A DNA stretch of 63,664 nucleotides, filler included, from Dugesia japonica (taxonomy: Eukaryota): NCBI GenBank assembly GCA_001938525.1. It is 6 parts of 6 records of this genome, joined end to end, with 100 filler letters (N's around TTAATTAATTAA, not from the genome) between each part and the next. Parts side by side here need not be neighbours in the genome. Positions count along the whole stretch, not along the records: positions 21,355 to 32,169 come from MQRL01597557.1; 5 more parts are not named here. One strand, written 5' to 3'. Both the position numbers and the translations under genes were made by a program. Below, one piece after another: positions 24,731-30,322 of the stretch. Every line of letters begins with the position of its first letter. The stretch's first letter is position 1. The notes under the pieces were generated by a model. It was given only the letters and a program-made list of their open reading frames with translations. It searched no databases and was not told the origin of the DNA.

Positions 24731-26463
24731 AGAGTGTGTCACTGAAACCTAACAATATAAAAACGTTTAATTCAAGGGAAATTTGGTGATTCCCAGCTTA
24801 GAAATGTATAATTTATAAGTGGCTAATTATAAAAACAAAGATTTGATGGAATCATAAATTAATAACAATGTCAAATAATTCGTCAAATAAATTTGATTTT
24901 AAAAAATCAGAAAAATACAATAATTCAAGCGAATATATTAACCCAACCAAAATGTATACAAAATTTTGAAGATTTCAGTTTAATTATATTAAGCAAAATA
25001 ATATATCATTCAAAGATAGAAGATAACAGAAAAGACTTTAATTAATTTCGACTAAAAGTCATAAACCTATTCCATTCAAATAACATTCAAAAAGTTAAAA
25101 CTCTTATTTGACTTTGATTTCAATCGTTTAATTGTCAAAGCAAATTATCTGGAATTTTGTTGCTAAAAGCAATATAAGTGGTCTTGTCGTAGCACTGCAC
25201 ACGTACAAATATTAAAAAACCAAATACTTTTTGCAGAACTCAAATGTGTCACTGTAAATCATCAAACGGGTCACTTGGTGACCCACGGATCACGGGTTGC
25301 CGATCTCTGGTCTATAAGTTTTGTATTATCTAATATATTTCAATGTCCTTTAGTTTGTAGCGGTTTCATTAATATTGGATCATTTCTAAATACACTCTCA
25401 AGTATTCCAATATTTTCTCAACAGTTATATCAAAAGTATTTAAATGTTTAAACGGTCTCAATAATATTCGATAATACTTTAATACTCTCAACAGTGTTCA
25501 AATGCTCAATTTTTTGCACCAATATGCAGCAGTTCAAATGTATCAGCGACGTTTGAAGGTTTAAATTATACTAATTATATTAAGTTTCCAAAATGAAGGT
25601 AACAAACGATTAGTGATATTTATTTCACATATTTCTTAGGTAGTTTGAGCTGGTGACAATAAATATCTTCTTTTTTGGAAACATTTCTTTGTTAACCACT
25701 GATTAACTAACTTTACTAAAGATCAAACGATTTTCATCAATTTATATATGTTATGGATTTAATTAACTGGTTCTGTCTAAATCAAATCGGCGTGGGGTTG
25801 CACTCTGATGGCAAAAGTCAAGATGCCGTTTAAAATACAACTGAGTAAACCGTGAATGAGATGGATAACAATACTAAAGGAAATAGACTACAATATAATG
25901 ATTTGATATGACTATACCTCAATTCATAGACATTTAAGAACTTAATTTACTCGTGTACCTTATTTGTTGTAAATTGTAATAATATAAAACTTTCTCTTCT
26001 TGTAAATGTGTTGGGGTGAAACACCTGCTAAACGGGAATAAGGCTAAAAAGCCGAATCGACCGAAAAGAATAGCAGGACCGCTATAGTCACCAATAATGA
26101 AATATAATCATGAAATCAACATTAGAAAAGAACGAAATAAAAATCAAAGATGAATACGAAGAACCGGGTAATATGAAATCAACTTACGATTGGATATTAA
26201 GAAAAATTATTAAATTAATAATAAACAACAAAGAAAAGCAGTATGGAAAATATTTAATTAACAAAAGAAAATTGATTAATTTTAAAAATAAAAAGAAGCA
26301 AAATTAGATAGAATTCTGTTTTACTCGAATAACTCTGGTCAAGAAAGTCGGAGAGAATCCGGGTAAGAAAATTCAAGAAGAGAACAGCAAGGGACATTAA
26401 GATTTATCAAGAAGGAAAACTTACCATCGCCCAGAAGGCTGCTGCAAGGTCCACAAGATTGAG

Positions 26464-26665
26464 CCAATAGGAGGCCTGAAAATAAAAATAACACAAAGAA
26501 AGAACCATCACATGTCCCTCTAAAAATACTTACCAATCAGAGCTCTAAAACTCTGAAAAAATTCTGGAATCGTGGCGCTAGCGTCAATGAGACACTGGTA
26601 TATTGAAATAAAAATACCCTCCAATAAGAATGATGCCGAGTTGCATCAGAAAATCCTATAAAAGG
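26464..26665 (+). promoter_or_regulatory. Pol II promoter of element copy 1 (three CCAAT boxes, TGATGCCG motif, TATA box)
   Basis: CCAAT at 26464, 26533 and 26621. tgatgccgagttgcatcagaaaatccTATAAAA is conserved with copy 2. Confidence 0.75.
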
Positions 26666-27131
26666 AACCCCGAATTTGGAAGATTTAATCACAAAAAAAT
26701 CACTTCTTAGCTTCAAAATTTTAATTACACTTGTGACAAGCATAATTATATCGGAATATTTATCTGGAAAGGAGAGAATTCACGAATCGACTCACGAATA
26801 ATCGTCAACTATCCAAAAGAAAATCAAATTTACCGGAATACCATTGAGTAAAATTCTAATTATTTTGGTCTTGATTAATCTTGTCCCAAAGAAAGTTAAT
26901 TAGTCCCGGCAGAAATTCGTTNNNNNNCCAAGTGTTAAGCCGATCAACAATCGAATCCTTTGTGAAACCTGTTGCAGAGATTTTACAGAAATATTACAAA
27001 GTAAATTATTATTTTTTAATTGTGTAAAAGTGGTATAATTATTAACGATGAATATCATTTATCTTAATAAAATTTGTTCATATTAAAAAAAAACGTATAT
27101 TATTATTTTTTGTTTTGATAACTAATAAATC

Positions 27132-27345
27132 ATGAGTCATTGTGAGATTAATCCCGTTCACCCTAGGAATCCCTTGAAATTATCGATTATTAAGAAAGTA
27201 ACCACTTTTCCTTTCTATGCACCAATAATACGATGTACGTAACTATGGTAATTCTAAAACAGTTAGATTCCAGAATTTAAACGGGGTTTAATCTCCTCCC
27301 ATAATTCTACCAACCACGCCTTGACCGGAGCATAATAATAAAATA
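27132..27345 (+). pseudogene. Cassette ORF1 (decayed), copy 1
   Basis: MSHCEINPVHPRNPLKLSII aligns with copy-2 MNDKRWNPLSPGHSLKLVS (NP..P...LKL); AATAAA near 27337. Confidence 0.4.
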
Positions 27346-27394
27346 ATCAATTAAGAAAACCATTTCCAATTATTTATTTAAGAACATTAAGAAA

Positions 27395-28320
27395 TTACAA
27401 CCCACTGCAGTTGATTCCAATTAAATCATGGAGAGATGGCAATCAAATAATTTCCAAAAATAACAGTAATCCGCTCTGATCTATTAAAATCTCCTTGATT
27501 ATAGTGGCAGCCAAATTTGTGTGACTAGACTGTATAAGAGTGGAAAATCTTTCTTTTCGTTGAGTCTGTACGTTATACAGAAGTTTTTCTCTTATTTAAC
27601 CTGTAAAAATCGCCAAACATCACTAAGCTTGAACAGTTGAGATTCCTATCATTAGTAGTGGTGTGACTAATTGATATTATCTACTTTAGTCAGATTACCT
27701 GCCTATACACACATATATGAAATTAAACCAGTAAGCACACACTCCAATAAGTGAGACCAAGATACTCCGTTTAAACAATATCACTAAGCAACCATAACAG
27801 GCAGAAATTCATAATTAGAAAGAAATTAAAAATAATATTAATTCTCACTTTTGTGCTTTTGTTATAAGTTTTGTTGATTTTACTGATGAACATTAATGCT
27901 ATAACGGGTATAATAACCAGAGTGGCAGGAATTTGGCCACTAATAGTAATAATAGCGTTTTGGGGAAATAGGTGTCCACTTGTTAGAGTAATTCGGTGAG
28001 TTGAATAAAAAATTGGGCTGATTACCATTCCGAAATAAGATTGGTAATACTATCAGATGCGACACCCACGATATGGTCATGCGTTCATGGGCCATAACCG
28101 GTATCTTTATCACGAATATTATTATGTAAAGAAAATTATTTTGATACATACTTTAGTGGTGATAGCCACTATCATTTTATACTAGAATTAACATTATCCT
28201 CACAACCAGGTTGCGATAATCCTAGGTCATGATTCCCCTTTGATAACTACCTTCCTATGATATGACACCCATCAAATAACAAGCTGTTATAATAATTTGC
28301 TCCGGGGAATTAAGTCAGCC
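27395..28320 (-). pseudogene. Antisense multi-pass membrane protein pseudogene inside element copy 1
   Basis: About 7-8 hydrophobic segments across frameshifts (e.g. ISWVSHLIVLPILF.MVISPIFY, IITISGQIPATLVIIPVIALMFI, INIIFNFFLIMNFCLLWLL, SILVSLIGVCAYWFNFIYVCIG). Minus-strand AATAAA follows the stop. Confidence 0.5.
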
Positions 28321-28357
28321 GGAAGAAAACGTAACTAACCATTTTCTCCTTTAGCTC

Positions 28358-28672: not shown

Positions 28673-29020
28673 ATGGAATCAATATGGGAGCGAGTCTTGG
28701 ATAGGCGAACCCGTCGAATAATTTTCCAACGGCACCACAATGCCTACACTCGAGATGCCGGGATCCTGGTAGATCGATCGAATCTACATCCCGTCGAAGC
28801 AGATGTGACTCGTATTCAGGACTATGGAAAGCAACTAAACTATCGCCAGTGGAGTGGTCCGGAGCGTCGCCACGCCACTCCATTCCGGTAACTACCTCCA
28901 GCTCCAACACCGGTAGTTCAAGCCTTTATAGCTAATATGCTTTGTGGCGTTAGAGAACCGTCCCTGGTGGCGGATGTGGAAAATACAGTTCTCCCTGATA
29001 CTACCACTCCCGATTCGTGA
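28673..29020 (+). pseudogene. Cassette ORF3, ~115 aa with one internal stop (28889), unknown function
   Basis: Acceptor ttcttag|; MESIWERVLDRRTRRIIF...PVEADVTRIQ...W.GP.R.H.TPF...VQAFIANML..VREP conserved with copy 2; AATAAA at 29055. Confidence 0.7.
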
Positions 29021-29211
29021 TTTTACTCATAATCATAAAATTTGTGTTTCTTTGAATAAATAAGTGTCTTAAACAGTGTTAATATGCTCTTTAGCCCTTG
29101 GGAGGATTACTTTTAATATTGGTATTTGGTGTTTTTATGTTTTGAGTAGAGTTGAACAGATATTAGAGGATTAATCAGAGAGTCGATAACTCTTATGATA
29201 TTTTCTTTTAG

Positions 29212-29570
29212 TGCATTCATCATTAAATCGTCCCCCAGCTCCAACCAAGAAAATCNGAGANACTAGCGAGGACCGCNAAATGACGTGGGACCTCTACCGA
29301 CTCGCCAAACGACGTTGGGAGGCAGAAGTGGCCACTGCGAATAGTAAAGTCCTCCGTTATAAGAAGAAATGTGTTCTTTTTAGGAATGAAGCGGAGGCCT
29401 CCCATTTACAGGAGCGCACTTGGAAAAAACAAGTAGAATCTTTTTCAGAGATCATCCGGTCCAGCCATGACCAAGAAAATAAACTGGTTAATGACAATTT
29501 GATTTTCCGAGAGAAAATCCCCCTCGAACCGCTAATGATCGACAAAGGTACTCAGACGAGTCGCTCATAG
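29212..29570 (+). CDS. Cassette ORF4 exon (begins ag|TG): coiled-coil protein with a C-terminal DKGTQT motif
   Basis: Open frame HSSLNR.PAPTKK...TWDLYRLAKRRWE...ENKLVND...PLEPLMIDKGTQTSRS; homologous to 38989-39339. Confidence 0.75.
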
Positions 29571-29694
29571 CTTAATATTGCATAATGGATTGAATTAGTA
29601 AATTATTTAATTGTATGAAAATATTTTCTTTGTTATTTGTTTTTCCCGCGTTGTAGCTTAGGTGTTCATTAAATTGATTATACTTTTTCTTTAG

Positions 29695-30077
29695 TGCCTC
29701 GAATCACGTTTCCTACCAGTCTAAGAAAGTGCCACCGCATCTTACGCCGTCTGTTATTAGAGCGCCACGTAAAACGCAAAGCATACCAAGCTCTTCTTAA
29801 GCATCTTGACCAAAGGAACCAACTCATAAAAAAATTGGATTTGGTATTCCGTAAGCAAAACGACTTGGCAATCCAAACCAAAGCCCTAGAGGCTGATACC
29901 AGGAAGTTACTATTACGAAAGATAGATTTTTTAAAGCAGTACATAGCGGATCTCTCCAGACAGATTGGGAATCCGGCCTGGATTCATTGGAACGATGACG
30001 ACGATGTCTCCGCCTTCAATTTTACAATTGACGACCCCGAGCAATGGCTAGACCCTAGCGTATTAAATGAGCTGTAA
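29695..30077 (+). CDS. Cassette ORF5 exon (begins ag|TG): basic region, coiled coil and acidic/aromatic tail
   Basis: Intact 127-codon frame; homologous to 39466-39849 with many third-position changes; AATAAA at 30088. Confidence 0.78.
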
Positions 30078-30134
30078 ATGTTATATTAATAAATGTTCCA
30101 AGAAGTATTTGATTTAAAATTTTGTGTAAGTCAA

Positions 30135-30322
30135 GGGAAAACCTTTGAACCCGAATACAAAGGTTTGTGGGCGTGCACCTCCCATTAAGGGAGAGGTCAA
30201 CCGCCCTAACTGAATGCCTACCCTAAGGGCGGTAGGTTAAATTCTTGGACGGGTTCCCCTGAGGGCTGTTTTTTTCCCTAGCCACTTTTTTATTATTCTC
30301 CGACTCAGGTGGAATCCCAACA
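30135..30322 (+). other. Conserved structured 3' terminal (U5-like) region of element copy 1
   Basis: Stacked hairpins conserved with 39909-40093, including compensatory substitutions. Confidence 0.7.

Follow-up and report, generated by a model that had tools for sequence, protein, structure and literature searches.

Introduction

The giant planarian Gypsy element Burro (GYPSM1) exceeds 30 kb in total, and its interior of up to 25 kb implies multi-kilobase long terminal repeats (LTRs; PMC6431247). Among the plant Ty3/Gypsy elements, Ogre has LTRs of 1.9–6.5 kb (PMC6431247), and Retrosat2 has a 3.3-kb LTR whose R region was put at 2 kb from its sequence (PMC3485330). Here, a 4314-bp element is described that is located at 26009–30322 of a 63,664-nucleotide stretch of DNA (hereafter “the window”) deposited under Dugesia japonica assembly GCA_001938525.1. 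The window is AT-rich and is made up of several contigs joined by N spacers. The element is probably a solo LTR left by a large retrotransposon of the Ty3/Gypsy group, and this LTR would hold a spliced unit of four genes.

Burro resembles the element in its AT-rich animal host, its Gypsy-type ends, and its accessory open reading frames (ORFs). However, the accessory domains of Burro are located in an interior polyprotein or an upstream ORF, and no LTR genes are described in the excerpts of PMC6431247. Nothing on such genes is contained in those of PMC11410931 or PMC13524379. A preliminary description of the locus had invoked Burro; this link is an analogy of size and host. Retrosat2 and Ogre are similar in having LTRs of 3–6.5 kb with CCAAT and TATA motifs near the 5' end (PMC3485330, PMC6431247), and in having many solo LTRs (429 against 162 complete copies; PMC3485330). 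They differ in their extra ORF0 between the LTR and gag, and no LTR coding is reported in the excerpts of PMC3485330.

Protein-coding sequence within the LTR of a complex retroelement is known from mouse mammary tumor virus (MMTV; sag and rem exon 2) and from human immunodeficiency virus (HIV; nef) (PMC12789967). In those viruses, one ORF or exon pair is placed in U3, whereas the present element has four ORFs 3' of its main TATA box, with putative splice-built starts. Small, selected accessory ORFs 5' of gag (sORF1 and sORF2) occur in the MDG1 group of Drosophila, where a short sORF1 transcript arises by early polyadenylation (PMC11952523). These sORFs, in contrast, are outside the LTR, unspliced, and lost in solo LTRs (PMC11952523); compared with them, ORFs A–D of the element have no membrane segment that is obvious by eye. 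The DNA elements Ginger1 and Ginger2 share TGTNR termini, a 4-bp target-site duplication (TSD), and the size range (PMC2836005), but the element has neither long terminal inverted repeats (TIRs) nor a transposase (no Pfam match; a non-autonomous member would still be compatible).

Boundaries of the element and its second copy

All features of the element and of its second copy are on the plus strand. The element starts with TGTTGGG (26009–26015), which is of the TGTNR type, and ends with CCCAACA (30316–30322), the two forming a 7-bp inverted repeat. It is flanked by AATG on both sides (26005–26008 and 30323–30326). Comparison of the termini thereby confirmed the 4314-bp unit, the ends, and the TSD that had been described before. 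An inverted repeat of the 7-bp TG..CA kind with a 4-bp TSD, at a spacing of 1–8 kb, was found 31 times in the window, the element itself included; the termini alone are therefore weak proof. The element is taken to be real because a second copy has an independent TSD and because DNA depth steps up at the left edge. In both DNA runs, depth rose from 11–15 in the left flank to 1094–14310 over the first ca. 760 bp, a jump of more than 100-fold of the kind seen in a dispersed multi-copy family (depth is not copy number, and one AT-rich bin is possibly inflated). It was 56–252 over 26771–28317 and 224–1800 from there through the ORFs as far as 29255; the comparison ran from the left flank to the latter position.

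The second copy (36751–40093; 3343 bp) was located on another contig, and the earlier report of a diverged homolog with the same order of parts was correct. Its termini are TATTGGGG...CCCAACA (TATTGGGG/CCCCAACA as the terminal pair), its TSD is ATAT, and it is 65% identical to the element over the best 1.1 kb. The inverted repeat is thus 7–9 bp and the 4-bp TSD non-specific (AATG, ATAT) in both copies, each of which is partly decayed. There were no other terminus matches in the window beyond these two. Every statistic below that compares the copies has n = 2.

The TG..CA ends of the TGTNR type, the short inverted repeat, and the 4-bp TSD around a single repeat without an interior are the features of a Ty3/Gypsy solo LTR. 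No Pfam match to reverse transcriptase (RT), RNaseH, integrase, or transposase was obtained in any element frame tested. Inspection of the flanks revealed neither a TGG resembling a primer-binding site (PBS) 3' of the element nor a purine tract 5' of it, and no internal direct repeat longer than 20 bp was found within it. The earlier statement that gag, pol, and transposase are missing and that no PBS or polypurine tract (PPT) adjoins the element accordingly stands.

The same ends could belong to a complete, non-autonomous DNA element with a four-gene unit of its own, for whose mobilization a Ginger-like or undescribed transposase of the integrase type would be responsible. Ginger elements, at 2.6–7 kb, are likewise marked by TG..CA ends and 4-bp TSDs (PMC2836005), and both copies are stand-alone, TSD-bounded units in which no retroelement interior was seen. 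However, the TIRs measure 40–270 bp in Ginger1 and 50–180 bp in Ginger2, and Ginger1 targets CCGG or CCGT (PMC2836005); PMC6839031 likewise speaks against Ginger with respect to TIR length and target. The long TIRs that, according to the preliminary description, would have pointed to a Ginger-like element did not emerge: both copies have inverted repeats of 7–9 bp and the targets AATG and ATAT. In addition, the conserved hairpins that follow the poly(A)-type signal (see below) would have no role in a cut-and-paste element. We consider an origin as a DNA element unlikely.

Coding content and selection

Four ORFs were supported. ORF A (28358–28537; 59 aa; acceptor AG ending at 28354) has a basic N-terminal half followed by GKIEHPDETDLxCLAE. 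It is open in both copies at 56% identity, and a 16-residue core is nearly invariant between them. ORF B (28673–29020; 115 codons; acceptor AG ending at 28670) has an Arg-rich N-terminus and, in the element, an in-frame stop at 28889–28891. The ORF C exon (29212–29570; 118 codons) starts with TG, is helical, ends in DKGTQT, and contains three N bases in the assembly. The ORF D exon (29695–30077; 126 codons) also starts with TG and has no Met in any of its codons; the other two phases close within 4–34 codons. In the homolog, ORF A (38116–38307) is open, and ORFs B (38408–38716), C (from 38989), and D (39466–39849) are broken by stops or frameshifts.

The proportions of nonsynonymous (pN) and synonymous (pS) differences were calculated between the element and the homolog, skipping codons with stops, Ns, or gaps. 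The values of pN and pS were 0.29 and 0.94 for ORF A (58 codons), 0.28 and 0.77 for ORF B (102 codons), 0.23 and 0.72 for ORF C (115 codons), and 0.21 and 0.91 for ORF D (119 codons). In all eight other plus-strand frames of the four blocks, pN/pS was at least 0.85. Judged by these ratios, the four ORFs are under purifying selection along the lineages, while the copies themselves decay. The preliminary description had made its account depend on such selection, which is present in all four (pN 0.21–0.29, pS 0.72–0.94). That description had also counted five small ORFs; the fifth was rejected, as 27130–28340 contains 28–44 stops per 403 codons in the six frames, has flat GC by codon position, and gave no significant match to the homolog.

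The proteins were not recognized initially, and no known family was found for any of the four in Pfam, PHROGs, or PDB sequences. Pfam returned nothing above cut-off for the ORFs or for the six frames of the middle region, PHROGs only noise (E 0.006–0.02), and sequence searches of the PDB no significant match. Exact protein look-ups found none of eight. Large protein collections were queried with C and D: no homolog of ORF C was detected in them, and none of ORF D by word index or by a full phmmer search of 1.84 billion representatives. Pattern searches returned no relatives in metagenomes and none among 18 candidates in viral contigs. One of 50 metagenome candidates was a bacterial ORF that shared a heptapeptide and appeared sulfatase-like by eye; it was rejected.

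Putative promoter, leader, and splice sites

A promoter had been placed ca. 650 bp from the 5' end, and an array of RNA polymerase II (Pol II) promoter-type motifs does occur there (26464–26663), with a spacing common to both copies. It comprises CCAAT-type boxes at 26464, 26533, 26584, and 26621, the palindrome TGATGC-N6-GCATCA at 26631–26648, and a TATA box at 26657; its promoter activity is presumed from these motifs. The successive intervals are 69/51/37/12/25 in the element and 68/51/37/12/26 in the homolog, so that all five agree within 1 nt although synonymous sites are near saturation between the copies. This array is in the deepest part of the element in the DNA runs.

The unequal depth could indicate a rearranged retroelement, in which an internal accessory region had interrupted an ordinary LTR of ca. 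1 kb or had recombined with it. Selection on the ORFs would then have acted within the parent element, whose LTR would not normally include them. Promoter and cassette differ in depth 10- to 100-fold, DNA contigs show deletions of 70–1542 bp, and in Burro-like elements accessory ORFs precede gag (PMC6431247). On the other hand, the order of parts and the ends were kept in two lineages with saturated synonymous sites, and a single accident is unlikely to be kept twice; the element also has no PBS or PPT relic and no internal repeat. A rearrangement of this kind is quite improbable.

Downstream of the TATA box, sequence inspection suggested a non-coding leader exon (26687–27000, the start being approximate) that has no ATG and ends in A at a donor-like site, AAA/GTAAAT (GT at 27001). 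The first such site in the homolog, CAA/GTGACT at 37583, likewise ends in A; the first donor-like site 3' of the TATA box therefore does so in both copies. A putative first intron (27001–28354) differs between the copies, shows deletions among DNA contigs, and has no ORF that is supported by frame scans. Within it, 27130–28340 is an element-specific 1.2-kb stretch with a GC content of 31–42% in most 100-bp bins. This stretch occurs in other copies (depth 56–252), where it has internal deletions.

An AG acceptor precedes each ORF, and seven of the eight acceptors have 9–11 pyrimidines per 12 positions. In ORFs A and B, an ATG follows 2–4 nt past the acceptor AG. A TG stands directly after the acceptor in 4/4 exons of C and D, versus 9/128 pyrimidine-rich YAG sites in the whole window (those four included). 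Given the initial TG of the C and D exons, the A at the end of the first donor, and the absence of Met from ORF D, splicing likely creates the start codon of C and D. A single leader is thus likely joined to four acceptors.

The acceptors just 5' of each ORF also resemble the spacers of an operon, and the unit could consist of captured host genes, or of a trans-spliced host operon, carried passively in the repeat. Genes from an unsequenced clade would likewise yield no database matches. However, neither the C nor the D exon contains a start in the conserved frame, and the other phases close within 4–34 codons, so an AUG-ended leader of the kind known from flatworms would be out of frame. The ORFs are also multi-copy and decayed in both copies, like the genes of transposons. 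A host origin is very unlikely.

The 3' end

A poly(A)-type signal, AATAAA (30088–30093), is located 11 nt past the stop of ORF D and is followed by T/GT-rich DNA. The homolog has its equivalent, AATAGA, at 39860, at the same distance from the ORF D stop. Most other poly(A)-type hexamers in the element lie in AT-rich DNA, and the one after ORF D is the only one positionally common to both copies. The poly(A) signals noted previously are thereby reduced to one that is shared, most of the others being ordinary for AT-rich DNA.

Farther 3', three conserved hairpins (30160–30317) were found, the last of which closes 5 nt before the terminus; this region is the putative U5. The same three hairpins were obtained when each copy was folded independently, and to that extent the structured 3' end of the preliminary description is upheld. 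The folding energy is modest, with z-scores of −2.05 (element) and −1.82 (homolog). For the terminal stem, z was −3.0 and −2.3 in the sense orientation vs. −2.1 and −1.2 in the antisense orientation in the two copies. Rfam contained no match. The order promoter, poly(A)-type signal, hairpins is kept on one strand, as motifs, in both copies. A conserved structure 3' of a poly(A) signal is hard to explain without a longer, read-through RNA, as at a U5–PBS junction. The location of the hairpins is therefore the main sequence argument for an LTR.

The preliminary description had assigned the ORFs to R/U5. As they precede the conserved poly(A)-type signal, they would be in R or U3, not in U5.

Predicted proteins

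The C-terminus of ORF C, DKGTQT, conforms to the LC8 motif [D/S]-K-x-[T/V/I]-Q-[T/V] (PMC3078936, PMC6607443) and is near a putative coiled coil; the homolog has DKCSQT, a variant with S. The motif occurred twice in 127,324 six-frame residues of the window, at the two ORF C ends, compared with 0.0015 in shuffles. The protein is predicted to be a coiled-coil client dimerized by the dynein light chain LC8.

An AlphaFold2 model of ORF D is a single helix from residue 7 to 90 (84 residues), with a mean predicted local distance difference test score (pLDDT) of 82.6. Its first 30 residues are basic on balance, and the final 30 are acidic-aromatic; we take this to be the layout of a dimeric transactivator. 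ORF D is predicted to act as a dimer, as a transactivator with a basic helix and an acidic tail, and its target may be the palindrome next to the TATA box. Pfam gave no basic leucine zipper (bZIP) match for ORF D, and the basic signature of that family (N-x7-R/K) is absent by eye. Of 41 Foldseek matches to viral structures, none reached E 0.001, a result that is uninformative for one helix.

ORFs A and B are predicted to be small basic regulators. The model of ORF B (pLDDT 41) was discarded, its fold not being predictable. A WW-like appearance of its N-terminus had no Pfam support and was rejected.

Discussion

According to the proposed mechanism, Pol II would start ca. 30 nt past the TATA box at 26657. 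One ATG-free leader would be joined to any of the four acceptors by alternative splicing, the process by which complex retroviruses express their accessory genes. ORFs A and B would then be translated from the ATG 2–4 nt past the junction, and C and D from the last A of the leader plus the first TG of the exon. The RNAs would end near 30110, and the ca. 210 bp past that point would be U5, included in RNA only when the 5' LTR reads through into the PBS and gag-pol. This layout would give a U3 of ca. 680 bp, a spliced cassette of ca. 3.4 kb, and a U5 of ca. 210 bp. Solo copies would arise by LTR–LTR recombination, which keeps the whole unit. A solo Gypsy LTR with accessory genes, as originally proposed, remains the best reading given the selection on the ORFs and the absence of long TIRs and of the Ginger1 target; the number of ORFs had to be revised to four, and the splicing had been missed.

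We lean slightly toward placing the cassette in an R of ca. 3.4 kb. A long R is not unprecedented, because the R of Retrosat2 was put at 2 kb and the MDG1 group produces a short sORF1 transcript that is polyadenylated early. Under the same LTR origin, the cassette could instead be located in a U3 of ca. 4.1 kb with its own promoter; a TATA-like site (30082) that overlaps the poly(A) signal would then set the start of genomic RNA near 30110, and R would be very short, as in MMTV. In MMTV, sag is wholly in U3, and the poly(A) hexamer is ca. 20 nt before the start site (PMC12789967). Both copies have TATA-like DNA 51 nt upstream of their conserved 3' block, and placement in U3 avoids a kilobase-sized strong-stop DNA and early polyadenylation in the 5' LTR. 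Yet no CCAAT box or other conserved element is near 30082, and TATA-like words are frequent in AT-rich spacers. The upstream promoter region is also far deeper in the DNA runs than the cassette, as expected of the main promoter of the clade. A cassette in U3 is possible, if somewhat doubtful.

Several observations weigh against a solo LTR with a spliced cassette in R. No copy adjoining a PBS, PPT, or gag-pol was found in the window, in viral and metagenome contigs, or in the protein collections. Retroviral R regions are 15–250 nt long (PMC12789967), and 3.4 kb would be extreme. The acceptor of ORF A in the homolog is weak (6–7 pyrimidines per 12), and other 150-nt windows fold as well as the hairpin region or better. 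No splice joints were present in two RNA runs, of which 6% and 25% were read. These runs yielded 13 and 47 matching reads, all partial and 56/60 less than 90% alike; they fell mainly in the promoter region, with almost none in the ORFs (the comparison ended early in ORF C). As for the proteins, ORF D has no bZIP signature (NxxxxxxxR) by eye and no bZIP match in Pfam, and the homolog has SQT rather than TQT in ORF C. Many TQT peptides fail to bind LC8 (PMC6607443). Finally, the comparisons rest on two copies.

The promoter-region RNA of relatives agrees with genomic RNA having a U3 at its 3' end; read-through explains it equally well. LTR elements are silenced by PIWI in planarians (PMC8532177), and such silencing could be the cause of the low RNA of the element, if the host is a planarian.

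A broader scenario is offered tentatively. An animal Ty3/Gypsy clade may run an early program in the style of complex retroviruses wholly from inside its LTR, with the R of ca. 3.4 kb giving rise to four regulator mRNAs, two of which would have start codons made only by splicing. D would activate the LTR palindrome, C would engage LC8, and the products would switch the 5' LTR from early polyadenylation to read-through. Solo LTRs would then be portable four-gene units, their cassettes swapped under a shared promoter.

Sequence context

By Pfam, genes of the trypsin and kringle types occur in the window together with remnants of Gypsy RT/RNaseH, integrase, and a DDE_3 transposase; the window is part of an animal genome rich in transposons. 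At 22631–23508 (+), 2.5 kb to the left of the element, is a gene of the trypsin family that occupies two frames and is probably interrupted by a short intron. Broken Gypsy-type RT, RNaseH, and integrase fragments are found at 32380–33974 (+), 43451–45960 (−), 9268–9645 (−), and 20920–21252 (−), and no link between these fragments and the termini of the element was found in the window. An N gap adjoins a 217-nt direct repeat (32553/32820), which probably arose in assembly. A kringle-domain exon is present at 41792–42136 (+). An intronless, diverged SMN-Tudor ORF of 172 aa (2412–2930, +), which is presumably SPF30-like, has one relative, P0003, at 84% identity.

Just to the left of the homolog, two decayed frames (35521–35808, −, and 36502–36639, −) had no Pfam or PHROGs match in the frames tested; we take them to resemble pieces of Polinton major and minor capsid proteins. 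The strongest fold in either copy is in the B–C spacer of the homolog (38744–38893; z −4.6, 25 shuffles) and is unmatched in the element.

Novelty and implications

LTRs of great length, accessory ORFs, and single genes encoded in an LTR are separately known already. None of the titles and opening parts of abstracts that were searched describes several genes in a spliced cassette within the LTR of an invertebrate element; Grohme 2018, its supplements, and Repbase were outside this search and may cover such LTRs. Annotation pipelines would miss C and D, as these have no genomic ATG.

Solo LTRs are usually viewed as non-coding leftovers that donate promoters. If the present interpretation is true, this repeat carries four selected genes, and the loss of gag-pol by recombination leaves the regulators intact and dispersed. 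R or U3 would be extended to kilobases of coding DNA, and small, testable proteins would be on offer, among them an LC8-motif protein and a candidate transactivator. An invertebrate retrotransposon would then have a layer of accessory genes like that of the complex retroviruses.

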